Assembly: GCA_965249725.1 (NCBI GenBank)
Contig: OZ252251.1
Coordinates: 704,001 to 768,000 of the forward strand
Source of the DNA: Longimicrobiales bacterium
GTDB taxonomy: Bacteria; Gemmatimonadota; Gemmatimonadetes; Longimicrobiales; Gaopeijiaceae
Direction: 5' to 3'
Length of the DNA: 64,000 bases
Both the position numbers and the translations under genes were made by a program. The notes beneath the pieces are model-generated. The model had not been told where the DNA came from and did not search any database. It saw only the letters and a program-made list of their open reading frames with translations. Positions 29,924 through 51,328 of the stretch are shown piece by piece (the first letter of the stretch is position 1; each line of letters starts with the position of its first letter).

Positions 29924-32194
29924 TCAGAGAATCCTGAGCTGCCTCGAGTATTTCACGATCAACGACCGTGTGAGGGGTCCGGTGAGGCTCGCCAAGCCGT
30001 GAGACTCTTGTGCTTCGTTGTAGACCACGTACAGCCCCGTCCCCGCGGTGTCTAACACGCCGAGACGTGCGTTCACCGACCACACATCGGCTTGATCCGA
30101 GTATTGAAGAAGGGTCTGCAAGAAGATTCGCGGTGTGAAAAAATATCCGACCCGAAAGCTCGTTCGTGTGGTCTTGAGGTCGCCCTCGTCCAATCGGACG
30201 ATGTTGTGGTCGAACCTGAACTCGGCGGTCAGAGTCTCTCCCTGCCGATAGGTGATCCCCATGTCGCCCGTGTACCGTGTGCCGGAGAAGAACTGGCCGC
30301 CATGAACCATAATGCGGCCTGACCAGCGAGCCGAGGGGTCGGTCCTCAGCTCCAGCGCCGGGAGAAAGTCGTTGTAACGCCCCGCAGGGATGACGACGCC
30401 CGGAGCGACCTCGAACGGCTCGCTGAGCCCCTCCTGGTGGAAGTTGAATTCCGGACCGAACCGACCTCCGCCCTCGGTGATGAACTCGGTATCGAGGTGG
30501 AAGTATCCCGTCTGTAGTTCCCCATCCAAGTCCCAGTAGTAGCTCGAGTTAATGTGCGGCGAAAACTCCCGGATCCACGACACCGAGGGCATCCGGACAG
30601 CCTTGGCGATGTTGGCATCGAGGTAGCGGTACCCAACCCGGCTCACGAAGCCCACCTCCGGGTTGAAATTTTTTCCGACCGCCCGCAACTGCATGCTCGT
30701 GCTGAAATCGCGGATCTGGTACGACAGATTGACGTTCGCGGCTTCGTCGCCTCCGATCAGCCCCGGGGTCTCCGTGCGGGCCACCCAGGCGTCGACGCTA
30801 AACGCGTCTCCAATGCCCAAACGCCCATCGACGGCGTATGTGCGGTTGTGGTCGCCCCCATCGTGGGTCGCCCTCCGTTGTACGAACATGGCCCCGGCGC
30901 GTGAGCGGTTGGGCAGTTCCTTAGTCACGCGGGCCACCGTGAAGGAATTCTCGCGGACACCCACCTCGACGTTCTCGTCGAGGTTATCCGTGAAGATCTG
31001 CACCAGCCCCACGCCAAGGCCTCGCACCTTGCCACTCAGCCGGCCGCCTCCCAGGATCGGCACCGCCTTGCCGCCGGGCGATATCCCGATCCTTCGACTG
31101 AAGAACAGATCCGCCGCCCGAGGTGTGCCGGCGGCGAAGGTCCCGGCGTTCTCGAGGAAGAACGGCCGCTTCTCCTGGAAGAACAGAGCGAACCGCTCGT
31201 TGACCGCGATCTGACCGGCGTCGGCCTCTACCTGACTGAAATCCGGATTGACCGTCCCGTCCAGGGTGAGGTTCGACGTCAGCCCATACGTCAGGTTGGC
31301 ACCGAAGTCGCCAGTGGGATCATCCCGAAGGAACACGTCGTTATCGTCGAGTGCACCGTTCAGGCTGCCCGTAACCACCGGATTGATCTCCATGAAGAGG
31401 CCCGGATCGAGGTCTCGGAGGTCCTGGAGCTTGCCAGCCTCCAAGAGCTTGTTGGGTTGGTTCGCAAAGGACGGCGCCCACGACTGCTGGTAGCCATTGC
31501 GCTGGATCCGACGGGTCACCTGAATGCCCCAGTCCTGGACCGGCACGTCGGCAAACCGCACGCTCTTGAACGGAATCCGTAGCTCGACCTCGTACCCTTG
31601 GTCGGTGAGGCGTCCTCCCGACTCCCATATGAAGTCGGGATTGTCGTCGATCGGCGGGCGGGAAAAGCCGCCGCCCCCGCCTCCGCTCCCGCCCCAGTGT
31701 CCACTTCGCCCGCCGCTGCCTCCCTCGAGCCAGATGCCGTCCTACTGGACTCCGAACGGGTTCACCGAAAAGGCGTACGCCCGCCGCTGATCGTCGAACG
31801 TATCCAGTACGACGCGGACATAGTCGTTCGAACGCGTCACCTGGTCGCGCTCCGTCATGGTCGCGCGGATGCCCGCTGGATCCGAGTCGAGAGCCTTGAT
31901 CGCGAAGTAGACGGCGTCATCGGTTACGAAGACACGTACCTCCGTCTGTTGCGAGCCGGGAATCCCCTCGGAGGGGTCGTACTGCGTGAAGCCGGTGAGG
32001 ACGGGCGCGGCATCCCAGACCGACTCGTCGATCCGGCCGTCGATGCTCACGTCCGGGTTCGTGAAACGTGGCGTGACGATCTGGGTCTGTCCGGCGGAGC
32101 CGTCGTATTCGAGAGCCGGCGACCGCGACGGCTGCGCATCGACCGTTGCCGAGGCAGCGCTGATCTGGAGGACGGCGAAAAGAACTGGAATCAT
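29924..32194 (-). pseudogene. CBM9-like + DUF5916 outer-membrane protein with in-frame TAG at 31742-31744
   Basis: FSVNPFGVQ*DGIW continues in frame to ELRIPFKS, NPDFSQVEAD, EKRPFFLE. Confidence 0.8.
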
Positions 32195-36005: not shown

Positions 36006-36491
36006 ATGCCGAATCGCATCGCACAATTCACGACCAATCAAGGCGAGTTCAAGGTCGAGCTCTTCGAGGAGCGCGCACCCGAAACGACGAAGAACTTCAT
36101 CGACCTCGTGGAGAAGGAGTACTACGACGGCATCGTCTTCCACCGCGTCATCGAGGGGTTCATGCTTCAGGGCGGATGCCCCACGGGCAACGGCACGGGC
36201 GGCCCCGGCTACACGATCGCCGATGAGTTCCACCCCGAGCTGCGGCATGACGTCGAAGGTGTTCTCTCGATGGCCAACGCCGGCCCCAACACCGGCGGCT
36301 CACAGTTCTTCGTGACTTTGGCCCCCACGGCCTGGCTCGATGGGAAGCACGCGGTCTTCGGCAAGGTCGTCGACGGCATGGACACCATCCGGGCTATCGG
36401 CACGACCGCCACCGGCCCAGGAGACAGACCTCTTCAAGAGATCGTCATGGAGCGGGTCGAGATCGTGGGACAGGGCCAGGAAGCCGACTGA
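36006..36491 (+). CDS. Cyclophilin-type peptidyl-prolyl isomerase
   Basis: FHRVIEGFMLQGG, LSMANAGPNTGGSQFF, HAVFGKV. Confidence 0.95.
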   Translation: MPNRIAQFTTNQGEFKVELFEERAPETTKNFIDLVEKEYYDGIVFHRVIEGFMLQGGCPTGNGTGGPGYTIADEFHPELRHDVEGVLSMANAGPNTGGSQFFVTLAPTAWLDGKHAVFGKVVDGMDTIRAIGTTATGPGDRPLQEIVMERVEIVGQGQEAD

Positions 36492-36518
36492 CAAGCATTC
36501 TTACGTTTGTCTCGGAAT

Positions 36519-36535
36519 CGTAACATTCTGTTGCG
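36519..36535. promoter_or_regulatory. Candidate upstream activator sequence
   Basis: CGTAACA-ttc-TGTTGCG imperfect palindrome about 110-125 bp upstream of the -24 box. Confidence 0.45.
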
Positions 36536-36601
36536 TTTTCGGGGAAATAGGTAAATATATTAACAGCTAAGCCTGCTGACCTCTCAGAGGTCAAGTAGGC
36601 T

Positions 36602-36614
36602 TAAGTTGTTGATA
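36602..36614 (-). promoter_or_regulatory. IHF binding site
   Basis: TATCAACAACTTA matches WATCAANNNNTTR exactly; lies between the candidate UAS and the promoter. Confidence 0.65.
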
Positions 36615-36642
36615 CTATGTCGGTTGCGGGTCCTGACAAGGT

Positions 36643-36658
36643 TGGCACCGAGATTGCA
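36643..36658 (+). promoter_or_regulatory. sigma54 (-24/-12) promoter
   Basis: TGGCAC-CGAGA-TTGCA consensus. Confidence 0.85.
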
Positions 36659-36715
36659 TATACCACCCTCACCCGCATGATCTCGGAGTTGTCGTCGACC
36701 TGACGGAGGAGAAGG

Positions 36716-37333
36716 ATGTTTAGGAAGAGAGACGTTTGGCGCATACTGCCTTTCGCCGTGCTGTTCGGTGTTTGGTCCTGCACCGACACACCGACGGACG
36801 AAGGCCCCGCCGCGCCCGCTGAGGGCTTGGCATCTGCGTTCTTCGAAACCGCTCCAGCACCCGGCTTCGCGGCCCACCAGTGGCGTGACTCGCGAGAGAG
36901 CCAGATGACGGTGACGCGCACCATCGGCGCGGAGGGGGGCGTGATGGAGTTCCGGAAGCTCGGAGCCTCGATCGTCTTCCCAGAGGGCGCCCTCTCGGAG
37001 GCAACAACGATCGAGGCGAAGGCGATCGCCGGCCCGGTCGTGGCCCTCGAGTTCAGTCCGCATGGCATCGACTTTGGCGTGCCCGTGCAGATTCGCATCA
37101 ATGCACGCATGCTGGCGCCCGGATGGGGCGGGAGCCTCGAGAGCGGCGACGAGCTGGGTGAGCACGACGGCGAGGTCCTGCGTCGGCACCTCTCGAAGCT
37201 CATAGGCGTCTACTATGTGGGCGGTCACACATCAGGCGCTGCCCCTCTGGAGACTCTGCCGATGTTCTTCGAGGACGGAGATGTCGTGCTCGAAGTGAGG
37301 CACTTCTGCGGCTACGCAGTGGCGTCGGGTTAG
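36716..37333 (+). CDS. Lipoprotein with ZU5/GAIN-like domain ending HF-CGYAVASG
   Basis: VWSC lipobox; IGAEGG, IVFPEGAL, FSPHGIDF..PV ZU5-like motifs; terminal HFC. Confidence 0.7.
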   Translation: MFRKRDVWRILPFAVLFGVWSCTDTPTDEGPAAPAEGLASAFFETAPAPGFAAHQWRDSRESQMTVTRTIGAEGGVMEFRKLGASIVFPEGALSEATTIEAKAIAGPVVALEFSPHGIDFGVPVQIRINARMLAPGWGGSLESGDELGEHDGEVLRRHLSKLIGVYYVGGHTSGAAPLETLPMFFEDGDVVLEVRHFCGYAVASG

Positions 37334-37389
37334 CTGGGAAGGGTGTGACTCGTGCTCGTAAGAGATGCACACTCCAGAGGAACGAATAG

Positions 37390-38451
37390 ATGAACCGCGC
37401 CATTGACGTGACAAGTGAATCTCCGGAAGAGAGACAGGTCAGGGCGGGCGATCTCGCCCGTGCGGGCCGAGAAGCGGAGACCCAGGGAGCCCTAGGTGAC
37501 TCCCTGGAGAAGCTGACCGCGGCGTTGGACCTTCTTCCCGATAACGAACCGTCGCCGCTCCGAGCCGACATCCTCCGGTGGCTCGGCACGACGCTTCGCG
37601 AACTCGGGCAAACGACCGATGCCGAGTCCCGCTACGAAGAGAGCAGTGCCCTCTCGCGAGACATCGCATACGGAACCGGCGAAGCCCACGCCCTGAACTG
37701 CCTCGCGATCATTGCCCAACGGCGGGGCGACATGAATGCCGCCCAGTCCAGGTATCGACAGGCCGCGCGCCAGGCAAGCGACTCGGGAGATCACCGACTC
37801 GCCGGAATGGTCGAGCAAAACCTCGGCGTCCTCGCGAACATCCAAGGAGATCTGGACGGTGCCCTCGTGCGCTACCGGGCCAGCCTCAGGGCGTTCGAAG
37901 AGGGCGATTTCGAGGAAGGCATGTCGTGGGTGCTCAACAATCTGGGCATGCTCCACACCGACCTCGGCAAGTACGACGACGCTGAGGAGCACTTTACCCG
38001 CGGCCTCGATATCGCCCGCCGTCGGAAGGACCTTCATACTCAGGCTCTTCTGGAATCGAACCTCGCCGAGGTCTACATCCGACTCGAGCAATGGGAAGCG
38101 GCCGAGGCCTACGTAGAAAGGGCGCTCGGCATCGCTGAAGAGAGGGGCGACCCACTCCGGAAGGCCGACGCTCTCAAGTTCCTCGGCATGATCCAGCGGG
38201 CCCAGGGTCACCTCTCCCTCGCAGACGAGTCTCTTTCGAGCGCCAATCGTCTCGCAGAGGAGAGTGAAGACGCCCTGCTGGCCGCAGAGGTGTGCCGGGA
38301 ATTGGGGGAGACCCGTGCCCAGATGGGACAATACCCTGATGCCACCGAGCTCCTGGAGCGCGCCGTACGGCTCTTCAGAGAAATGAACGCGTCGCTCGAC
38401 GCCACCAAGGCACAAGAGCGATTGGATCGGATCCATGCGGACTCCGAATAG
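37390..38451 (+). CDS. Stand-alone TPR protein (MalT/RRNPP-like helical repeats)
   Basis: About 40-aa repeats: ALNCLA, QNLG, LNNLG, SNLA. Confidence 0.85.
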   Translation: MNRAIDVTSESPEERQVRAGDLARAGREAETQGALGDSLEKLTAALDLLPDNEPSPLRADILRWLGTTLRELGQTTDAESRYEESSALSRDIAYGTGEAHALNCLAIIAQRRGDMNAAQSRYRQAARQASDSGDHRLAGMVEQNLGVLANIQGDLDGALVRYRASLRAFEEGDFEEGMSWVLNNLGMLHTDLGKYDDAEEHFTRGLDIARRRKDLHTQALLESNLAEVYIRLEQWEAAEAYVERALGIAEERGDPLRKADALKFLGMIQRAQGHLSLADESLSSANRLAEESEDALLAAEVCRELGETRAQMGQYPDATELLERAVRLFREMNASLDATKAQERLDRIHADSE

Positions 38452-38475
38452 ACACCCCAGACCTCGAGGCGAATC

Positions 38476-39534
38476 GTGAGCTATCAACTCGCCAGCAGAG
38501 AAGTAGAAGAGACTGTCCCGACCGGCGACCGCACCGCCACCGATATCGGCTTTCAGGCGATCATCGGGGAGGGCGCCTCGCTCAAGAAGGCGATCGATTT
38601 CGCCAAGAGGGTGGCGACCCGAAAACTGACGACGGTCCTCATTGTGGGAGACACGGGCACCGGCAAAGGCCTGTTCGCCCGCGGCATCCACTACGCCAGC
38701 CAGGATGCCCAGGAGCCTTTCGTCACGGTGAACTGCGCGGCCATCCCCGGGAACCTCCTCGAGTCCGAGCTGTTCGGACACGAACGCGGGGCGTTCACGG
38801 ATGCCCGGTCGCGGAAGCTGGGTCTCCTAGAATTGGCAGGAGCAGGTACGCTCTTCCTCGACGAGGTCAGTGAACTGCCTCCCAACCTTCAGCCCAAGCT
38901 GCTGCGGGCACTCGAGGAGAGGCGCTTCCGGAGAATCGGAGGCACGGAGGAGATCGCGGCCAAGTGCCGCCTGCTCGCTGCCGCGAACAGTTCGTTCGAG
39001 GATGCGTTGAGCGAAGGGCGTTTCCGCGAAGACCTGTTCTACCGACTCAACGTCCTCCGCATCAACGTCCCTCCCCTGCGGGAGCGCGGAAAGGACCCGG
39101 AGTTGCTGGCGCGCCACTTCATGGCCGAGATCGCTCGCGAGATGGGCATTGCGCCGAAGGCCCTCCGCAAGGACGCCGTCGAGGTCCTCAATCGCCACGA
39201 CTGGCCAGGCAATGTCCGAGAGCTGAAGAACGTCATCCAACGGGCCATCGTGCTGACCGACGGACCGGCCGTGCGTGCCGAGCACCTCAGCATCTTCGGT
39301 CGGGCGAGAGTGGACGGGGATGCCCCGGAGGACCGGGACCGTTCGATCCACATTCCACCCACGGGTCTGCGCCTGTCTGAGATCGAAGCTCAAGCGCTAC
39401 GCATCACCCTCGACATTACCGGGGGAAACCGAAGCGCCGCTGCCCGCATTCTCGGCCTCTCTCGGCCCACGGTCCATCGTAAGATCCGGGATTACGGTCT
39501 CGACGATCGCAAAAGTCTCGACGCCACCGCGTGA
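38476..39534 (+). CDS. sigma54 enhancer-binding protein without an N-terminal sensory domain
   Basis: GDTGTGK, ESELFGHERGAFTDA, LFLDE, FREDLFYRL, WPGNVREL, Fis-type HTH. Confidence 0.92.
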   Translation: MSYQLASREVEETVPTGDRTATDIGFQAIIGEGASLKKAIDFAKRVATRKLTTVLIVGDTGTGKGLFARGIHYASQDAQEPFVTVNCAAIPGNLLESELFGHERGAFTDARSRKLGLLELAGAGTLFLDEVSELPPNLQPKLLRALEERRFRRIGGTEEIAAKCRLLAAANSSFEDALSEGRFREDLFYRLNVLRINVPPLRERGKDPELLARHFMAEIAREMGIAPKALRKDAVEVLNRHDWPGNVRELKNVIQRAIVLTDGPAVRAEHLSIFGRARVDGDAPEDRDRSIHIPPTGLRLSEIEAQALRITLDITGGNRSAAARILGLSRPTVHRKIRDYGLDDRKSLDATA

Positions 39535-39538
39535 CATC

Positions 39539-41260
39539 GTGGAATCGACCACCGCCCTGGGAATCCCGGAGGGTGCCCGAAGCCTGATCGCAGAGGCCAG
39601 GGCCGCGGAGCGGCGGGCGCGCCGAAGCCGCGCCCGCGCGTGTTACGAAGAGGCCCTACGTAGCCTGAATGGCTGGGAACACGGTGCCCTGGCCAGCGCC
39701 ATCCTCCGGTGGATCGCCCGCACCCATTACGAAAGCGGACACCTCGCCGCTGCGATGGACTGCTTCGAGGCGGCCCTGGCCGTAGCCGACGCCCACGACG
39801 ACATGCTGGGCAAGGCGCACGCCCTGAACGGCAAGGGCATCGTCGAGCAGCTCCGCGGCAACCTCGAGACGGCTGCCGCCCACTTCGCGTGGAGCCTGGA
39901 TCGGGCCTCGCGCGCCGGTGACGCCGCCCTACCCGCGATGATCCATCAGAACCTGGGTGTAATCGCCAACATCCAGGGCGACTTCGCGGAGGCCCTCGTC
40001 CAGTACCGCTCCAGCAAAGACGCGTACGACCGGCTGGGTGAAGACGATCGAGTGGGTCCTCTTCTCAACAACATCGGCCGTCTGCATACGGACCGTGGAG
40101 AGTGGAGCGAGGCCGAGGCGGCGCTCGAAGAGGCGAGCCGTCGCTGTGTCGAATCAGGCGACGTGGACCATCACGTCCACGCTCAGGTGAACCTCGCGCG
40201 CCTCTGGATCGCCCGAGGGGACCTAGAGCGAGCCCGGGCCTCCTGCGATACCGCGTGCAACGTCTCGCGCGATGTCGCGGAGGGTCGATGGTCCGGAGAG
40301 ATCTTGAAGCACTACGGCACCATCTACCGGCTGACCAAGCGACCGGAACTCGCGCTCGACTCTCTGCGACAGGCGCGACTCCTCGCAGATGACCAGAGGA
40401 ACACGCTCTTGGCCGCCGAGATCGCACGAGAATTCGCCGACGTCTACGCCGATCAGGGGCGGAATCGGGACACACTGAGGGCGCTGAACGAGTGTCTACG
40501 ACTCTTCTCGGAGTTCCAAGCCAAGCACAACCTGGCCGAGGTGAGGGACCGGATCTCTCGTCTCGAGTATCGCTTCCTGGACGTGGTCTGCTCCTGGGGA
40601 GAGTCCATCGAATCGAAGGACCGCTACACACAGGGTCACTGTGAACGAGTGGCGGACCTGGCCTGCGCCCTGGCGACCGCGGCCGGCCTGGACAAGGACG
40701 TTCTGACCTGGTTCCGCATGGGCGCGCTTCTCCACGACCTCGGCAAGATCGCCGTGCCCTCGTCCATTCTGAACAAGCCGGGCGCCCTTACGGCGGAGGA
40801 GTGGGTCATCATGAAGCGGCATCCGGAAGCCGGGGTCGAGCTCCTCCAAGGCATCGAGTTCCCATGGGACATCCGACCCATGCTGCGCCACCACCACGAG
40901 CGCTGGGACGGATCTGGATATCCGCACGGCCTGATGGGGGCCGACATCCCCCTTTCAGCTCGGATCCTGTGCCTGGCCGACGTGTTCGACGCTCTCACGA
41001 CAGACCGCAGCTACCGGAGTGGACTGCCCCCCGACCAAGCGATGTCGGTCATGCGGAACGAGGCAGGCTCCACATTCGACCCGCACCTGTTCGGCGTGTT
41101 CGAGGGCTTGTCTCAGGACTCCCCTCGGCGGTGGGCGACACGCTCGGCCCGCGATCGCCGCCGCAAGCCGGTGGGCACGCCACACCTCATACCGGTGGCG
41201 GGGGCGCTCAGCTCGCCCATCCCTCGCCGAACCCTGCCGCCGCAGGAAATCTGGGCCTAG
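39539..41260 (+). CDS. TPR + HD-GYP cyclic-dinucleotide phosphodiesterase
   Basis: TPR array, then DRYTQGH, LLHDLGK, HHHERWDGSGYP, ADVFDALTTDRSYR. Confidence 0.9.
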   Translation: MESTTALGIPEGARSLIAEARAAERRARRSRARACYEEALRSLNGWEHGALASAILRWIARTHYESGHLAAAMDCFEAALAVADAHDDMLGKAHALNGKGIVEQLRGNLETAAAHFAWSLDRASRAGDAALPAMIHQNLGVIANIQGDFAEALVQYRSSKDAYDRLGEDDRVGPLLNNIGRLHTDRGEWSEAEAALEEASRRCVESGDVDHHVHAQVNLARLWIARGDLERARASCDTACNVSRDVAEGRWSGEILKHYGTIYRLTKRPELALDSLRQARLLADDQRNTLLAAEIAREFADVYADQGRNRDTLRALNECLRLFSEFQAKHNLAEVRDRISRLEYRFLDVVCSWGESIESKDRYTQGHCERVADLACALATAAGLDKDVLTWFRMGALLHDLGKIAVPSSILNKPGALTAEEWVIMKRHPEAGVELLQGIEFPWDIRPMLRHHHERWDGSGYPHGLMGADIPLSARILCLADVFDALTTDRSYRSGLPPDQAMSVMRNEAGSTFDPHLFGVFEGLSQDSPRRWATRSARDRRRKPVGTPHLIPVAGALSSPIPRRTLPPQEIWA

Positions 41261-44438: not shown

Positions 44439-45329
44439 GTGCGCGCAATGGTATCTCTCATCAGTGCGGCCACACTCACGCTTATCATCGGTTCGCCCAC
44501 ACCCCCATCGGCGTACCCATCGGCGTACCCATCGGCGCACCCATCGGCGCAACAGACCTCGCCACGCGCCTCGTTCCTCTCGTCTGAAGCCGTTGCGACT
44601 GCGCCGGGGACCGCTCGTCCCATCGGGTCGGCCGACCCATCCGTACAGGCCGAGGGCATCCCGCGCGAGTTCTACTTCTCGCGCGTCGCCTATACGGGTT
44701 ACAGCCGAGGGTTCTACGGACGCGGGCCGTCCTGGGCGACGGACTTTCCCAAGGCCGATCAGATCTTCCTTTCGTTCATCGACCGGCTGCTTTCCAACCT
44801 GGACGCGTACGAGAGGGAGCACCCGGTCCAGTTGAACGATCCCGAGATACGCCGTTTCCCTTACCTCTACGCGCTCGAAGTCGGTCGTATGGCTCTCACC
44901 GACCCCGAGATCCAAGGGCTGCGGAGTTACCTGATGGCTGGCGGCTTCCTGGTCATCGACGACTTCTGGGGGTCACGCGAGTGGCAGAATTTCGAGTACC
45001 AGATGCAGCTCGTACTGCCCGGCCACTCCATCGCCGACCTGCCGCTCGACCACCCGATCTTCACCGCGTTCTACGAGATCGAAGAGATCATGCAGGTCCC
45101 CAACGTCCGCAATGGCGTGAACGGTTGGCAGACTCACGAGGGCGACGGAATCGTGCCCATGGTCAAGGGGATCCACGATGAGAACGGCCGCCTGATGGTG
45201 GTCATCAACTTCAATACCGATCTGGGCGACGCCTGGGAATGGGCGGACAATCCTTACTATCCCCTCAAGTACTCGACGTATGCCTACGAGATGGGCGTGA
45301 ACATGATCGTGTACGCCATGAGTCACTGA
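44439..45329 (+). CDS. DUF4159 domain secreted protein
   Basis: WATDFP, YLMAGGFLVIDDFW, NTDLGDAWE, MGVN..YAMSH. Confidence 0.85.
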   Translation: MRAMVSLISAATLTLIIGSPTPPSAYPSAYPSAHPSAQQTSPRASFLSSEAVATAPGTARPIGSADPSVQAEGIPREFYFSRVAYTGYSRGFYGRGPSWATDFPKADQIFLSFIDRLLSNLDAYEREHPVQLNDPEIRRFPYLYALEVGRMALTDPEIQGLRSYLMAGGFLVIDDFWGSREWQNFEYQMQLVLPGHSIADLPLDHPIFTAFYEIEEIMQVPNVRNGVNGWQTHEGDGIVPMVKGIHDENGRLMVVINFNTDLGDAWEWADNPYYPLKYSTYAYEMGVNMIVYAMSH

Positions 45330-45351
45330 TCATGCTCCAGGAAACGACCTG

Positions 45352-47640
45352 ATGCAGGGCCTCTTCGAATTCCTGTTCAAGTATCGCCCTCTTCTCTTTC
45401 AGGAGGGCGAGTTCACCTTCGGATCTCCGTGGCCCACCATGGTGGTGCTCGGGCTGGTCGCCGCACTCTCGATTCCGACGGTCCTTACCTACACGGCAGC
45501 AAGGGGTAATACGCAGCCCGTGGATCGGGCGGTCATGGCCACCCTTCGACTCGGGGTGATCGCGCTGCTGGTGTTCATCCTCTTCCAGCCCACACTCGTC
45601 CTCACTTCGGTGGTACCACAGCGGAACTTCGTGGGGATTCTCGTCGACGATTCCCAGAGCATGCAGATTGCATCAGACGATGGGGTGCCTCGAAGTGACT
45701 TCATCCGTCAGACGTTTGGAGCGGAGGGAAGCGAATTGCTCAGCGAACTCAGCGACAAGTTCGCCCTCCGATTCTTCCGATTCAGCAGAGAGACGAGCCG
45801 GATGGAGGACGTGTCGGAGCTGACGTTCGCAGGGACCGGCACTGAGCTCGGTAGCGCGATGGTCCGCGCCCAGGAGGAATTGGCCGGAGTCCCGCTTTCC
45901 GGCTTGGTCGTGATCTCCGACGGCGCGGATAACTCGGGCGAGACCCTCGCGGAGTCATTGTTGCCGCTCCAGGCGGCCAACATACCCGTCTACACGGTCG
46001 GCCTCGGGGAGGAAACGCTCTCGCCAGACGTGCAGGTCAGTCGCGTCGAGGTCCCGCGAACGGTGCTCTTGGGCACGTCGCTGGTCGTCGACGTGATCGT
46101 TTCGCACCGCGGCTTCCCCGGCCAAACCGTCCCCCTCGTGGTTGAGGACGGTGGTATCCTCATGGCCACCGAGGACGTGACGTTCGAGGGAGACGGGGAG
46201 CCGGTCGTGGCACGCATCAGGCTCGAGGTCTCCGAGAGTGGACCGCGCCTGCTCCAGTTCAGAGTGCCGGTTCAGGACGGCGAGAGGGTGGCCCGCAACA
46301 ACGTTCGCGAAGTCCTGATCGATGTCGTCGACGAGGCGGAGAAGGTCCTCTACTTCGAGGGCGAGCCTCGCTGGGAGGTGAAGTTCCTACGTCGCGCCGT
46401 GTCGGGCGACGACAACCTGCAGGTGGTGGTGCTCCAGCGAACCGCCGAGAGCAAATTCCTTCGTCTGGACGTGGACGACGCCGAAGAGTTGGCGGCCGGC
46501 TTCCCGAAGACCCGGGAGGAGTTGTTCCGCTACCGGGCCCTGATCCTCGGTAGTGTCGAGGCTAGTTTCTTCACGCACGACCAGCTCAACATGATCGCGG
46601 ACTTCGTGTCCAAGCGGGGTGGAGGACTCCTCCTTCTCGGAGGCCGCAATTCGTTCCGAGAGGGAGGCTACGTCGGAACACCTGTCGAGGAAGCCCTTCC
46701 CGTGTTCCTGGACGACGAACTGAGCGACGGCCGCCCCTTCTTCTCCGAGCTCGTCGTGAGCCCGACGCGTACCGGGTTGACCCACCCCGCGACACAGCTG
46801 GGAGGTGACGGAGGCGAGGAGGTGAGGGCGCTTTGGGAGTCTCTCCCACCGGTCTCCTCCCTGAACCCCATCACCCGCCTCAAGCCGGGCGCTACCAGCC
46901 TGCTTACAGGTGGGAGTGAGGAAGACCGCACGACACAGGTGGTGCTGGCCTATCACCGCTACGGCCGTGGCAAGGTCATCGTGCTTCCCATCCAGGACTC
47001 GTGGATCTGGCAGATGCACGCAGAGGTGGATCTGGAGGACCAGACCCATGAGACCTTCTGGCGCCAGCTCATCCGTTGGCTGGCTGACGGCGTACCGCAT
47101 CGGGTCGGCGCCCAGGGCGAGCGCGAGGTCGTGGAGCCCGGGCAGTCGGTCGGCATCTCGGCCGAGGTGAACGACTCGGCGTACGTGGAGGTCAACAACG
47201 GCAACATCGTCGCGACGGTCCGGAGCCCCGGTGGGGACTCCCTGAGCGTACCCCTAGACTGGGCGGTCGACCAGGACGGACGCTATGACGCCAACTTCAC
47301 GACGTCGGAGCCGGGCTTGTACGAGATCTCCGTCCAGGCCACGCGCGCGGCCGACACGTTGGGAACGGCCGTCACCTACGTGCACGCGGCCCCGTCCGAC
47401 GACGAGTACTTCGACGCGAGCATGCGCGGCACCACCCTACGGCGCGTGGCCGAAGAGACTGGGGGCCTGTTCTACACGCCCGACGATGTCGCGTCCCTGC
47501 CTGAAGACATCAGCCTGACCGGTGCGGGGGTGACCCTCACGGAGGAGCGGGATCTTTGGGACATGCCGTTCCTCCTGATCCTCCTTCTGAGCCTCATGGC
47601 CGGTGAGTGGGGCTACCGCCGCAAGAGGAGCCTCGTTTGA
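45352..47640 (+). CDS. Membrane protein with vWA and glutamine-amidotransferase-like domains
   Basis: DDSQSM MIDAS, SDG, GGGLLLLGG, YGRGKV, EWGYRR. Confidence 0.8.
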   Translation: MQGLFEFLFKYRPLLFQEGEFTFGSPWPTMVVLGLVAALSIPTVLTYTAARGNTQPVDRAVMATLRLGVIALLVFILFQPTLVLTSVVPQRNFVGILVDDSQSMQIASDDGVPRSDFIRQTFGAEGSELLSELSDKFALRFFRFSRETSRMEDVSELTFAGTGTELGSAMVRAQEELAGVPLSGLVVISDGADNSGETLAESLLPLQAANIPVYTVGLGEETLSPDVQVSRVEVPRTVLLGTSLVVDVIVSHRGFPGQTVPLVVEDGGILMATEDVTFEGDGEPVVARIRLEVSESGPRLLQFRVPVQDGERVARNNVREVLIDVVDEAEKVLYFEGEPRWEVKFLRRAVSGDDNLQVVVLQRTAESKFLRLDVDDAEELAAGFPKTREELFRYRALILGSVEASFFTHDQLNMIADFVSKRGGGLLLLGGRNSFREGGYVGTPVEEALPVFLDDELSDGRPFFSELVVSPTRTGLTHPATQLGGDGGEEVRALWESLPPVSSLNPITRLKPGATSLLTGGSEEDRTTQVVLAYHRYGRGKVIVLPIQDSWIWQMHAEVDLEDQTHETFWRQLIRWLADGVPHRVGAQGEREVVEPGQSVGISAEVNDSAYVEVNNGNIVATVRSPGGDSLSVPLDWAVDQDGRYDANFTTSEPGLYEISVQATRAADTLGTAVTYVHAAPSDDEYFDASMRGTTLRRVAEETGGLFYTPDDVASLPEDISLTGAGVTLTEERDLWDMPFLLILLLSLMAGEWGYRRKRSLV

Positions 47641-48656
47641 CCCTCAAGCGTTTCTGCGTGGCGGCCCTCGTGGCTGGTGTGTCCGTCCCCGGCACCCTAT
47701 CGACGCCGAGCCTTGCTGCGGCGCAGGAGACGCACGTCCTCGTGATCGGCGGGCTCGGCGGTGACGACGCGTATCGAGAGCGCTTCCTCGAGTGGGGTGG
47801 CTCGTTCGTCGACGCCGCCACGGAACGCCTCGGCGTACCCCGTGATCACATCGTATATCTGGGCGAGAAGCCCGAGGCGGATCCTCGGATCACCGACCGC
47901 TCGAGCCGCGACAACGTTGAGCGGGTCTTTGCGGAGATCGCGTCCAAGGCCGCTCCGGGCGATCACGTGTTCATCATGCTGATCGGACACGGCAGCTACA
48001 CCTCGGGCGAATCGCGATTCAACCTGCCCGGACCCGACCTGACCGCAGAGGACTTCGCGCTCATGCTCGACCAGCTGGTCGAGCAGAGGGTCTCCTTCGC
48101 CAATGTGACGAGTGCCAGCGGCGGTTTCGTCACCGCCCTCTCCGGCCCGGGCCGGGCCATCGTAACGGCCACGAAGACCGGCATGGAGCGCAACGAGTCC
48201 GTGTTCGCGGGCTATTTCATCAGCGCGTTCACGGGAGACGGGGCGGACCTCGACAAGAACGGTCGCGTCTCGCTGTCCGAGGCATTCGAGTTCGCACGCA
48301 CGGAGGTCGCTCGAGAGTACGAGAGTGACGGACGGATCATGACCGAGCACGCGCTCCTCGACGACAATGGTGACGGCGAGGGGAGTGAGAGCCTGGAGGA
48401 GGGGCTGGACGGAGTGTTGGCCGGGAAGCTGTTCCTGGGGGTGAGCCCCACGGCGGTGGCGGCCATGTCCACCGATGATCCCGCGCTGAGGGCGCTCTAC
48501 GAGGAAAAGGCCGTCTTGGAGCAACGCATCGAGGAGCTCCGGGCCATCAAGGACCAAATGGACGAGGAGCGCTACGAAACGACGTTCGAAGACCTACTCG
48601 TCGAGCTGGCACTCAAGAATCGTGCGATCCAGGCACGAGAGGGTGCCGGTTCGTGA
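47637..48656 (+). CDS. Secreted caspase/C13-fold-like protein
   Basis: LIGHGS; TSASGGF at the expected Cys position; DLDKNGRVS EF-hand-like loop. Confidence 0.55.
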   Translation: MTLKRFCVAALVAGVSVPGTLSTPSLAAAQETHVLVIGGLGGDDAYRERFLEWGGSFVDAATERLGVPRDHIVYLGEKPEADPRITDRSSRDNVERVFAEIASKAAPGDHVFIMLIGHGSYTSGESRFNLPGPDLTAEDFALMLDQLVEQRVSFANVTSASGGFVTALSGPGRAIVTATKTGMERNESVFAGYFISAFTGDGADLDKNGRVSLSEAFEFARTEVAREYESDGRIMTEHALLDDNGDGEGSESLEEGLDGVLAGKLFLGVSPTAVAAMSTDDPALRALYEEKAVLEQRIEELRAIKDQMDEERYETTFEDLLVELALKNRAIQAREGAGS

Positions 48657-51328
48657 AGCGTTTGATCACCGTCCTGCTGCTCGCGGTTTCGGCCCAACTC
48701 GGCTCATGGACCCCTGCGGGGGCCCAGACGACGCTCGAGCAGGCCCGGCGCCAGGCACGCTCTGGAGAGTACGACGCGGCCATCTCGGCACTCCGTGCAC
48801 TGGCGGCCCCCGGCGAGAACGCTCCGTCCAGTATCACGACCGACGTCCGGCTGGGCGCGTACATCGCGTATTTGAACGCCCTCGCTGAGGTGGGTCGCTA
48901 CGACGAGGCTCTCGACGCGGGAGCGCAGGCTCCCGAGGCCCTGTCCGCGGAGTTGGCAAACTCCGTGGGTGAGGTACTCTACCAGGTCGGTCGCCTCGAC
49001 GAGGCGCGAGAACAGTTCGATCGGTCCTGGAATGCGGGCGCGCGAGACCGGCACACCGCACGGCTGAACCGGGCGATTCTCGAATGGCGCTACGGCGATC
49101 GTGACACGGCCATTAGCGAGTTCGACTCGTTCATCGATCTCTACAACGACGCCCCTACGCTCTCTTCGAGCGAGCTCACGTCGATCGCAACCGCGGTCCG
49201 CTACCTGGGCACCGCAGAGCACGAGCTCTTCCAGGATGCCCTCAAGGCCTACGACGAGGCGATCGTAGCGGATCCGGGCTCCTTGGAGGCCCGCGTGCTC
49301 CTGAGCGAACTGTTCCTGGAGAAGTACAACGGCACGGAGGCAGACGCGTCCCTGAATGCCGTCCTCTCCCAGAACCCCCGTCACCCACGGGCGCTTCTGG
49401 GCCTGGCTAGGGCCATGGAGTTCAATGGCACGATCGGCGTCATGGATCAGGTGGAGGCGGCGTTGGAGAGCAATCCCAATCTCGTCGCCGGCAGAGTCTT
49501 CAAGGCCTGGCTCCACCTCGGGGTGGAGAGGCACGACGAGGCCCGTGCCGAGATCGAGGCCGCTCTGGAGGTAAACCCGGTCTCGCTCGAGGCCCTGAGC
49601 GCGCTGGCTGCCAGCCACTATCTCCGCGGAGAGGTCGACGACTACGAGAGATTGCGAAACCGGGTTGGCGAGCTGAGCCCAGACTACGGCGAGATCTACA
49701 ACGATATAGCCGAGCTGAGCGTGAAGAGCCGCAAGTACCACGATGCCGCCCGCCTCGCCTCCCAGGCCATCGCCCTCGATCCTAAGTCCTGGAGAGGCTA
49801 TGGCCTCCTGGGGGTGAACCAGCTCCGGCTCGGCCAGATAGAGGAGGGTCGAGCGAACCTGGAGACCGCGTTCGAAGGTGACCCGTACAACGTCTGGTTC
49901 TTCAACACGCTGAGCCTTCTCGACACCTTCGAGCACTACGAGGTGCTGGAGGAGGACTCACGCTTCGAGTACGTGCTCCACGAGCGCGAGGCCGAGGTCC
50001 TGGCTCCGTATATCGAACAGATCGCGGAGGAATCCCTTGAGGCTCTCGTGGACCGATACGGCGGGTACACACCGCCCCTGCCGGTCCGCATCGAGGTCTT
50101 CCCGAGCCATATGGACTTCTCGGTGCGCACAGTGGGCTTGGGAGGCCTCGGTGCCCTGGGCGTGACCTTCGGAAGCGTCGTCGCGATGGACTCGCCCTCG
50201 GCCAGGGCCCAGGGGGACTTCAACTGGGCGTCCGTCCTCTGGCACGAGATGGCTCACGTTTTTCACCTCGGCCTCAGCGAGCACGAGGTGCCCCGATGGT
50301 TCTCGGAGGGGTTGGCGGTGCACGAGCAGCGCCGAGCAAGGCCGGGCTGGGGCCACCAGCCGTCACCGGGCTTCCTGAGCAGATACCAGGAAGGGCTCAT
50401 GCTTCCGGTGAGCCAGATGAACGCCGGGTTCGTCCAACCGTCCTATCCCCAGCAGGTCGTGGACTCGTACCTGCAGGCATCGCTGGTCTTCGACTTCATC
50501 GAAGGCCGCTGGGGATTCGAGCCGATCCTGCAGATGCTGCACGGCTATCGTGACGGAGAGACGACCCCCGCGTTGGTGGAGCGCCTGCTGGACATCGAGA
50601 TGGAGGATCTGGACCGGGACTTCGACGAGTATTTCCGGGGCCGGTACGAAAGCTCTCTCAACGCCCTGGCCGCGCCGGCTGGAAGCGCCGGGATGTCGAC
50701 ACAGCCCACCTCGGTTGAAGACATCGCCCGGCTGGCTCGTGAGAACCCGGACAACTTCCGCGCGCGGCTCACGGCTGGCGTGGCCCTCTTCCAGCGGGAC
50801 CGCCCGGACGAAGCCGAAGGTCACCTGCGCGCCGCGCTGCGTCTCTTCCCGGAGTATGGAGGCATCGACAGCCCCTACTGGTTCCTGGCTCAAATCCACG
50901 CGCAGCGGGGGGAGACCGAGTTGGCCGCGGCGGCCCTCGCCCGTCAAACCGCCCTGAACGAAAGCCACTACGAGGCCTTCCTCCAGCACGGCGAGCTGCT
51001 GAACGAACTGGGGGACGTCGAAGGGGCGGCGGCAGCCTTGGACGCCGCCGTGTTGATCTACCCTTATGAGATCGAGCTCCACGATCGACTGGCCACCGTC
51101 CACACCGAGCGGGGCGACCTCACGGGCGCCGTTAGAGAGCGCCGCGCAGTGGTGGCGCTCGAGCCTACCGACAGGGCCGGAGCATACTACCAGCTGGCGC
51201 GCGCCTATTGGGCGGACGGCCAGATACGAGAGGCACGCAGGGCCGTCCTGAAAGCCCTCGAGAACGCCCCCAACTACCAAGAGGCATTGGATCTCCTGTT
51301 GGAGATTCGAGCGGGAGGTACGCAATGA
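48653..51328 (+). CDS. TPR protein with peptidase MA-like (gluzincin) domain
   Basis: WHEMAHVF...PRWFSEGLA flanked by TPR arrays; signal peptide. Confidence 0.85.
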   Translation: MKRLITVLLLAVSAQLGSWTPAGAQTTLEQARRQARSGEYDAAISALRALAAPGENAPSSITTDVRLGAYIAYLNALAEVGRYDEALDAGAQAPEALSAELANSVGEVLYQVGRLDEAREQFDRSWNAGARDRHTARLNRAILEWRYGDRDTAISEFDSFIDLYNDAPTLSSSELTSIATAVRYLGTAEHELFQDALKAYDEAIVADPGSLEARVLLSELFLEKYNGTEADASLNAVLSQNPRHPRALLGLARAMEFNGTIGVMDQVEAALESNPNLVAGRVFKAWLHLGVERHDEARAEIEAALEVNPVSLEALSALAASHYLRGEVDDYERLRNRVGELSPDYGEIYNDIAELSVKSRKYHDAARLASQAIALDPKSWRGYGLLGVNQLRLGQIEEGRANLETAFEGDPYNVWFFNTLSLLDTFEHYEVLEEDSRFEYVLHEREAEVLAPYIEQIAEESLEALVDRYGGYTPPLPVRIEVFPSHMDFSVRTVGLGGLGALGVTFGSVVAMDSPSARAQGDFNWASVLWHEMAHVFHLGLSEHEVPRWFSEGLAVHEQRRARPGWGHQPSPGFLSRYQEGLMLPVSQMNAGFVQPSYPQQVVDSYLQASLVFDFIEGRWGFEPILQMLHGYRDGETTPALVERLLDIEMEDLDRDFDEYFRGRYESSLNALAAPAGSAGMSTQPTSVEDIARLARENPDNFRARLTAGVALFQRDRPDEAEGHLRAALRLFPEYGGIDSPYWFLAQIHAQRGETELAAAALARQTALNESHYEAFLQHGELLNELGDVEGAAAALDAAVLIYPYEIELHDRLATVHTERGDLTGAVRERRAVVALEPTDRAGAYYQLARAYWADGQIREARRAVLKALENAPNYQEALDLLLEIRAGGTQ

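Follow-up and report, generated by a model that had tools for sequence, protein, structure and literature searches.

What signal does a four-gene operon of a barely studied soil and marine phylum read, and what does it control? The operon lies in a 64,000-nucleotide stretch of DNA (the window) from a Longimicrobiales bacterium of the Gemmatimonadota (assembly GCA_965249725.1, contig OZ252251.1, positions 704,001 to 768,000 of the forward strand), and encodes a lipoprotein, a TPR protein, a sigma54 activator, and a TPR-HD-GYP protein, in that order, 3' of an AT-rich gap behind a cyclophilin gene (Table 1). The initial annotation, made from the sequence of the window, proposed that one signal read by two related TPR domains controls both sigma54 transcription and cyclic di-GMP (c-di-GMP) turnover, in a circuit like those of the RRNPP family. 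We find that this cassette is a real, conserved, and apparently undescribed signaling operon, and we favor, at a probability of about 0.55, an autoregulated peptide circuit in which the C-terminal tail of the lipoprotein would be a signal imported by the oligopeptide permease (Opp), and the cytoplasmic TPR domains would control sigma54 transcription and c-di-GMP breakdown.

A survey of gene neighborhoods, which the initial annotation had named as one check on its proposal, shows that the gene order lipoprotein-TPR-activator-TPR(HD-GYP) recurs elsewhere, in 15 of 139 TPR-selected loci from three families and also in metagenome loci. The 139 loci comprise the window, 18 early loci, and the surroundings of 120 of 150 listed matches, and because they share descent all locus counts given here overstate independence. 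In 110 of them a TPR gene follows a lipoprotein gene within one run, and six others are at contig edges; in the reverse test, a TPR gene is directly downstream in 36 of 40 lipoprotein-selected loci, and one further locus ends at its contig. The commonest arrangement in the phylum is the lipoprotein with TPR-HD-GYP (57 strand-level gene strings), and full-length TPR-HD-GYP is present in 16 of 40 relatives. Among 401 genomes of the phylum the lipoprotein family is found in 231, the TPR domain family in 146 (E<=1e-20), and the sensor-less activator in only 23, such that the predicted phylum-wide core is the lipoprotein and TPR(-HD-GYP), with the activator module as a minority add-on. Counting one lipoprotein per TPR was rejected, as gene strings hold from 0 to 4 lipoproteins per receptor. 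A separate metagenome scan yielded 22 loci, 20 of them closely related to the solo TPR. All four genes are visible in five, and the others keep the order up to the contig end, except L323, where no TPR-HD-GYP gene follows the activator. Scanning contigs with TPR-HD-GYP returned mostly generic HD-GYP matches, with full-length relatives being 3 of 41 and all from Gemmatimonadota. The nearest named records of the cassette are from Longimicrobiales and Gemmatimonadales, and ESM Atlas gave, as a lead, Gemmatimonadota clusters at 0.92–0.95 and one ZU5 cluster at 0.89. In the close relative L037 (3740-9720) a transposase-like ORF (open reading frame; IS256-like by eye) separates the lipoprotein gene from its sigma54 promoter, and neither the activator frame nor that of TPR-HD-GYP is intact, reflecting either a decaying copy or assembly errors.

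The regulatory region is largely as initially described. The four genes are all on the + strand (36716-41260), the GC content of the preceding intergenic region is 48% (44% in the first 149 nt), compared with about 64% in the genome as a whole, and this region holds the sole match to the sigma54 consensus in the 64 kb (0.02 expected; 2 of 100 shuffles), which is one of four strict matches genome-wide. A scan of the + strand for sigma70 promoters and terminators gave no match. The palindromic enhancer proposed at 36519-36535 is present as the middle of three sites, the first of which overlaps the stop codon of the cyclophilin gene. Across 14 related promoters the best-matching palindrome offsets are 152/153, 122/123, and 92/93 bp (a 30-bp spacing), with 152/153 matching best and 92/93 third-best. 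Three tandem enhancers upstream of a -24/-12 promoter are also described for the norVW promoter of NorR (PMC2831303).

The palindrome TGTAAC-N5-GTTACA, with three or fewer mismatches, lies upstream in 17 of the 18 promoters that go with a sensor-less activator and in 6 of the 56 that do not; the first count is partly circular because the consensus was derived from that set, and in held-out checks the palindrome was found in 10 of 10 testable metagenome promoters and in five of seven further activator loci, at 98–100 bp. When the genome's 750 sigma54-like sites are ranked with an enhancer matrix built from 15 sites of other genera, the window promoter comes first (8.6, next 6.4), and no second promoter among them approaches its score; site 2 alone is not distinctive without the promoter, since 63 genomic 17-mers score as high. 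The enhancer thus tracks the activator, a strong sequence-based argument that the sensor-less activator binds the three enhancers and drives its own operon, as the initial annotation had supposed for the promoter; with the activator gene inside that operon, the loop would be autoregulatory. A sigma54-like site (score of at least 18 within 330 nt upstream of the lipoprotein gene) is present in 18 of 21 activator-containing operons (2.3 when shuffled; 2 on the other strand), and in 56 of 116 cases where the locus has no activator (15 when shuffled; 42 versus 0 on the other strand with the strict pattern), so the lipoprotein gene appears to be sigma54-driven more widely. The host genome (4.16 Mb) encodes rpoN, two IHF/HU genes, and nine sigma54 activators, and each cassette gene is single-copy in it.

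The activator has Pfam matches to Sigma54_activat, an AAA lid, and HTH_8, with the Sigma54 domain beginning at residue 29 and the Walker A and B motifs intact; none of REC, GAF, or PAS is matched, in agreement with their reported absence. Like PspF and HrpR/S it therefore consists of AAA+ and helix-turn-helix (HTH) domains only, and sensor-less activators of that kind are controlled in trans by a partner. It is PspF-like in build only: no NCBIfam equivalog is over its cut-off (PspF model TIGR02974, 247.8 versus 443.55 bits), and its relatives form one clade (23 rows, support 95) that shares a recognition helix and stands apart from seven other activators of the genome in the tree. Its candidate partner is a TPR protein, not the PspA coiled coil, and unlike PspF it apparently drives its own operon. 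Two members of the clade (L007:189-1172 and L024:7693-8658) have lost the GAFTGA loop and Walker B and kept the HTH, and could be inactive or act as repressors; elsewhere in the genome that holds L024 there is a further lipoprotein-TPR-activator locus, along with additional lipoprotein genes that carry the enhancer. Lipoprotein-TPR pairs are also adjoined by another type of sigma54 activator, in L030, L133, L134, L150, L165, L199, L207, L274, L278, L307–L310, and L312; it has an N-terminal region of about 130 residues with no Pfam match in the three scanned that appears receiver-like by eye, and 12 members form their own clade.

The solo TPR gene, 56 nt downstream of the lipoprotein gene, is closely tied to the activator. 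Its clade (22 rows, FastTree support 100) lies entirely in loci with the sensor-less activator (22/22), all 14 genomes with a top-scoring solo TPR carry the activator, and in four more genomes, outside the models, a more distant solo TPR is directly upstream of it. Pfam identifies only TPR in this protein, and both TPR proteins of the window lack a signal peptide. The two TPR regions are related, as was claimed, with 33% identity over 292 residues (E 1e-39), and fall in separate clades as old paralogues on the sequence trees, not as a local duplication. Both keep four asparagines of the groove; numbered as in the solo protein (Asn103, Asn144, Asn184, and Asn224), these are present in 115, 116, 118, and 105 of 118 paired TPRs, respectively, and contact of Asn with the peptide backbone is a mode of peptide anchoring reported for Rap-Phr (PMC3601957). 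A Rap-peptide complex is the third fold match of the solo TPR model (Z 25.6, root-mean-square deviation [rmsd] 4.1 over 305 residues), NprR scores Z 21.1, and no RRNPP chain is among the best 60 of 154 sequence matches to the TPR profile.

The lipoprotein matches Pfam ZU5 (27.6 bits, cut-off 21), has a Cys22 that is invariant in 12 of 12 sequences, and belongs to a family with a lipobox-like signal in 232 of 242 homologs. Its model (mean pLDDT, the model's confidence score, of 87) resembles ZU5 of ankyrin (Z 11.3, rmsd 3.0 over 114 residues; ankyrin/UNC5 range Z 9.2–11.3; Foldseek E 9e-8; ankyrin sequence matches E 1e-5), and further matches include GAIN (Z 5.6–7.7, with CD97 at 7.7), CARD8 (6.1), and Nup98 (4.4), of which only the ZU5 matches clear the noise range of the comparison tool. 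The ZU5, GAIN, FIIND, and Nup98 domains constitute one autoproteolytic superfamily (PMC3482391), and the Bacillus subtilis MAIN domain is cut between F and S of HFS, by Edman sequencing (bioRxiv 10.64898/2026.05.12.724683). In the lipoprotein, H196-F197-C198 sits before strand 153-158 of the model. We collected 267 homologs from two protein sets without regard to genomic context, leaving the residue after Phe free in the pattern; the motif is in 259, and the residue after Phe is Ser, Thr, or Cys in all 259. These three are the residues able to start an N-O/S acyl shift, and the conservation together with the fold suggests that the domain cuts itself between Phe197 and Cys198. The chain ends seven or eight residues past the predicted cut in 241 of the 259 and in 116 of 145 locus tails. 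With the anchor N-terminal and no passenger, the tail would be the only product to release. The HF motif by itself proves nothing for signaling, being a property of the fold; a second ZU5 protein of the genome (C1:485053-486870, about 600 residues, outside the window) has it mid-chain with further domains after it and no TPR neighbor, an architecture closer to the MAIN type.

The output enzyme was annotated as an HD-GYP protein, and the residues bear this out: E358, H367, H399, D400, H428, H452, H453, D481, the GYP motif, and R490 are all present, including all metal and substrate residues, the HD and HHExxDGxGYP motifs, and an N-terminal Glu, and each listed residue is kept in at least 157 of 160 TPR-linked HD-GYP domains. 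The enzyme is therefore predicted to be active and of the trinuclear type, as in PmGH, where by motif position E358 is equivalent to E185; this N-terminal Glu has been linked to full hydrolysis to GMP, and the main text of that survey has no mention of TPR, the input domain of the cassette enzyme, or of Gemmatimonad (bioRxiv 10.1101/2021.11.05.467447). This TPR occurs in other lineages as a fusion with HD-GYP plus GGDEF, to which a STAND-type ATPase and another TPR may be added. Proteins with all of these domains (1,570–1,600 residues; TPR-HD-GYP-GGDEF-STAND ATPase-TPR) are encoded directly behind oppA-oppB-oppC in L116 and L169–L172, with a ZU5 lipoprotein gene divergent and upstream of oppA. 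Cyclic GMP-AMP (cGAMP) is another possible substrate of HD-GYP domains.

Table 1. Positions in the window of the cassette genes and of the sites associated with their promoter
Feature	Coordinates	Strand	Description
Candidate enhancer site 1	36489..36505	.	153 bp upstream of the sigma54 site; 5 of 12 mismatches to TGTAAC-N5-GTTACA
Candidate enhancer site 2	36519..36535	.	123 bp upstream; 3 mismatches; middle of three sites
Candidate enhancer site 3	36549..36565	.	93 bp upstream; 6 mismatches, weak copy; matrix score 6.7
Inverted repeat	36568..36603	+	Between the enhancers and the IHF site; -12.3 kcal/mol as DNA, z -4.67, 0 of 200 shuffles
IHF consensus match	36602..36614	-	Exact, 1 match; 11 of 100 shuffles equal
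Sigma54 -24/-12 promoter	36643-36658	+	Consensus match
Lipoprotein, candidate signal precursor	36716..37333	+	205 aa; ZU5/GAIN-superfamily fold; Cys22 lipobox
Predicted autoproteolysis site and tail	37301..37330	+	His196-Phe197/Cys198; tail CGYAVASG (8 residues), candidate signal peptide
Stand-alone TPR protein, cytoplasmic	37390..38451	+	353 aa; about 8 repeats; candidate peptide receptor and activator partner
Sensor-less sigma54 enhancer-binding protein	38476..39534	+	352 aa; AAA+, GAFTDA loop at 38788-38805, Fis-type HTH
TPR-HD-GYP phosphodiesterase (predicted)	39539..41260	+	573 aa; Pfam TPR and HD_5

Several features suggest that the tail is more than the end of a fold. A second copy of the motif, or a Gly-rich variant, lies past the folded strand in 13 loci (L132, L217, L176, L198, L108, L026, L115, L264, L272, and four of the Longimicrobium group) and in four library proteins, at a place where it would serve no structural purpose; the 7-mer that forms the outer copy in L132 is the one found in loci whose TPRs have their groove residues in common with L132. 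Among 20 close relatives, nine carry extra sequence inserted at the cut site, which probably arose once; HF[S/T/C] is missing from seven of these, yet all nine end in G[YF]AVASG. Five loci (L027, L028, L029, L030, and L032) have, directly before TPR-HD-GYP, a lipoprotein of 51–78 residues with no ZU5 and a Gly/Tyr-rich end resembling the tail; these pairs come closest to the size criterion for RRNPP systems. SBP_bac_5 oligopeptide-binding genes are the commonest other neighbor (36 of 139 loci; 16 of 63 genera), against about 1–2% expected per 10 kb by our own arithmetic from 0–7 copies per genome, and any Opp part is present in 48 of the 139. In L223 (5396-6847), genes for a POT/PTR2 peptide transporter and an Opp ATPase are directly upstream of the lipoprotein gene, and in genome G050 (C1:2136268-2141978) the only SBP_bac_5 gene found is about 4 kb upstream of a lipoprotein-TPR-HD-GYP pair.

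Complex prediction for the solo TPR with the last 30 lipoprotein residues lends weak support, with a score of 0.59 against 0.02 for the best control, agreement between runs in at least 70% of contacts, and a partner pLDDT of at least 47; of 157 solved pairs 116 reach the score mark, as do 2 of 215 mismatched ones, and among pairs reaching it scores of 0.60 or less come from only 18 of the 157 solved pairs, yet from both mismatches. In 81 single-precursor pairs, peptide-receptor co-variation gave raw associations of up to 0.88 among those listed, which reduce to two to four independent contrasts on the tree. The lipoprotein, initially viewed as the sigma54 output, does appear to be sigma54-driven, and is probably the precursor of the signal rather than a mere output.

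The circuit we favor would run as follows. The activator would bind the three 30-bp-spaced enhancers and drive its own operon from the sigma54 promoter; the lipoprotein would be exported and anchored through Cys22, and its ZU5/GAIN-type domain would cut itself at Phe197/Cys198. The last seven or eight residues would be freed by unfolding or turnover of the lipoprotein, in which case the system would report envelope state as much as cell density. The peptide would re-enter the cytoplasm through an Opp/Dpp permease encoded elsewhere in the genome, its freeing and re-entry being the weakest step, and would bind in the Asn-lined groove of each TPR domain. Through the solo TPR it would then gate the activator in trans and complete a feedback loop; through the fused TPR it would gate HD-GYP and change c-di-GMP, with either sign. 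A broader version, in which across the Gemmatimonadota the cut strand is a diffusible signal of seven or eight residues that is re-imported by Opp and acts through TPR on c-di-GMP and, in the lineage of the window, on a self-amplifying sigma54 loop, is more tentative, and we hold it to be possible but somewhat short of an even chance.

A number of observations weigh against the peptide circuit. The tail is the last beta-strand of the beta-sandwich model, the x-F-S-x-Y motif comes with the fold, and MAIN/GAIN products remain in stable association after cleavage (bioRxiv 10.64898/2026.05.12.724683); release is the weak step, given that such products stay bound and the tail is a core strand. Self-cleavage cannot be obligatory in the seven close relatives that lost HF/S. 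There are no Opp genes at the window locus, the genome's three SBP loci being elsewhere, and in the lipoprotein-selected set an SBP gene is near only 3 of 40 loci and any Opp part near 6 of 40. The pairing of genes is incomplete: a ZU5 gene is missing from the run in 23 of the 139 TPR-selected loci and a TPR gene from 3 of the 40 lipoprotein-selected ones, seven held-out activator loci lack a lipoprotein gene, and 5 of 23 activator genomes show no solo TPR beside the activator, which speaks against an obligatory pair. The shared descent of the loci further lowers the weight of the counts, and the two best fold matches of the solo TPR are not RRNPP proteins. Lipoprotein-less activator loci (L297–L303 and L127) lie behind a conserved gene of about 300 residues (serine hydrolase/beta-lactamase-like by eye), and an OppA-like gene follows three of them.

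These points can be read in other ways. If the tail is only a structural strand and the lipoprotein a co-inherited output, the solo TPR could control the activator, TPR-HD-GYP, or both by direct TPR contacts in response to another cue, in the manner of RcbA/RcbB or PspA/PspF. The bound products of such domains and the activator loci without a lipoprotein gene would both fit, and RcbA is reported to de-repress RcbB through TPR-TPR contact (PMC12282931). Such a peptide-free circuit leaves unexplained the stop at +7/+8, the duplicated tails, the retention of the tail after loss of HF/S, the precursors of 51–78 residues, and the Opp linkage, and most TPR-HD-GYP genes have a lipoprotein but no solo TPR (the 57 strings being just ZU5 and TPR-HD); we regard it as unlikely, at rather worse than one chance in four.

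Rather less likely still is that the TPRs monitor export or the envelope within a single cell, reading the C-terminal tail of unexported lipoprotein, or of fragments recycled from the cell's own periplasm upon unfolding or degradation of the lipoprotein, as a C-degron reader would and with no signal passing between cells. The best fold match of the solo TPR, APPBP2 bound to a C-terminal degron (Z 31.1), is of this kind, the C-terminal seven residues are kept even where the self-cleavage site is absent, and most tails are near-identical across genera (25 of 81 share the same 7-mer), unlike specificity-coded pheromones. The anatomy of a diderm also agrees, since the outer membrane would trap a peptide in the periplasm. 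The cytoplasmic version has no need of Opp, yet Opp genes are the commonest other neighbor, and the C-terminus is not universally fixed, because 13 library and 29 locus tails reach past +8. The second fold match, the sensor domain (domain III) of MalT (Z 30.5, rmsd 3.6 over 334 residues), together with the Pfam TPR_MalT match, raises the prospect of TPRs that sense a small molecule imported by the linked ABC binding proteins, with the lipoprotein as a regulated surface protein; the transporters linked to the cassette belong to the oligopeptide class (SBP_bac_5, oligo_HPY, PTR2), a ladder of four Asn residues is a mark of peptide-backbone contact, and catabolic genes near the cassette do not recur among the surveyed loci, all of which make this very improbable.

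Compared with known systems, the RRNPP label of the initial annotation suits the proposed workings of the peptide circuit, but membership of the family fails on propeptide size and phylum. By the criteria set for peptide quorum sensing in Firmicutes (Rap-Phr, NprR-NprX, PlcR-PapR; PMC10075063), the similarities are that an exported-precursor gene adjoins a TPR-receptor gene, with Opp linkage in cassette relatives; that the solo TPR (353 residues) is in the receptor range of 250–500 residues, which the fused TPR-HD-GYP (573) exceeds; that the TPR groove is lined with candidate peptide-anchoring Asn residues; and that, like Rap, the solo TPR lacks a DNA-binding domain and would work through another regulator. 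The differences are a 205-residue folded lipoprotein with a predicted self-cleavage site in place of a propeptide of 10–100 residues trimmed by exopeptidases, a diderm phylum in place of Firmicutes and their mobile elements, and a sigma54 activator and HD-GYP as outputs, joined in relatives by GGDEF and a STAND-type ATPase. As to Sec secretion and exopeptidase maturation, the cassette precursor has a lipoprotein-type signal with an invariant Cys, and its maturation would seemingly be autoproteolytic.

The lipoprotein shares its fold, and H-F-[S/T/C] in the last turn, with the ZU5/GAIN superfamily (ankyrin/UNC5/PIDD, adhesion GPCRs, NLRP1/CARD8, Nup98), and the strand of seven or eight residues that it could release corresponds to the tethered agonist of adhesion GPCRs. 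MAIN proteins are described as large (mean 158 kDa), with a C-terminal anchor and release of the N-terminal ectodomain, unlike this lipoprotein with its N-terminal lipid anchor, no passenger, and a chain that ends eight residues past the predicted cut; the main text of that preprint has no mention of Gemmatimonad, ZU5, TPR, lipoprotein, HD-GYP, or quorum, and its supplementary homolog tables may list these proteins (bioRxiv 10.64898/2026.05.12.724683). The nearest TPR/c-di-GMP pair is RcbA/RcbB of Vibrio vulnificus, where a TPR protein likewise adjoins a TPR-gated c-di-GMP enzyme; the enzyme there, RcbB, is a cyclase of the GGDEF type, RcbA carries an additional region at its C-terminus, and the abstract names no lipoprotein, activator, or peptide ligand (PMC12282931).

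The remaining features of the locus are less central. The IHF site was rightly annotated as exact, but shuffles reach it in 11 of 100 cases and none of ten held-out relative promoters has an exact match (the consensus also occurs in L021), making it the weakest element of the promoter. The inverted repeat is possibly a terminator of the upstream gene, and similar hairpins are seen by eye in L021 and L037. For TPR-HD-GYP, the longest ORF would start at 39275; this start was rejected as it overlaps the activator gene and the starts of relatives disagree, and 39539 is favored because the L022 relative starts 7 nt past the activator stop. Downstream of the cassette, an operon at 44439-51328 (+), coding for DUF4159, a 762-residue GATase1-like membrane protein, a 349-residue protein, and an 891-residue TPR protein, is kept in L021–L023, and upstream, at 29924-32194 (-), a DUF5916 outer-membrane-type gene is seemingly split into ORFs 31742-32194 and 29924-31561, possibly by a frameshift.

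A full-text literature search, with limited coverage of subscription journals, brought up no report of this cassette. For Firmicutes, the sensing of peptides inside the cell by TPR receptors has been described (PMC10075063), and bacterial GAIN-like domains have so far been proposed to shed passengers, not to signal (bioRxiv 10.64898/2026.05.12.724683); the cassette joins the two in an abundant and barely studied phylum of soil and sea. It lends itself to a cheap and concrete test built on a peptide of eight residues, two soluble receptors, an enzymatic read-out, and a defined promoter bearing three enhancer sites. Should the peptide step prove wrong, a clade of autoregulated sensor-less sigma54 activators with its own enhancer and a TPR partner would remain, apparently not described in the literature found. 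The broader, phylum-wide version, if true, would amount to peptide quorum sensing inside the cells of a diderm phylum, with a GAIN cleavage product serving bacteria as a ligand, and the cassette would bear on the origin of the tethered-agonist logic of adhesion GPCRs.

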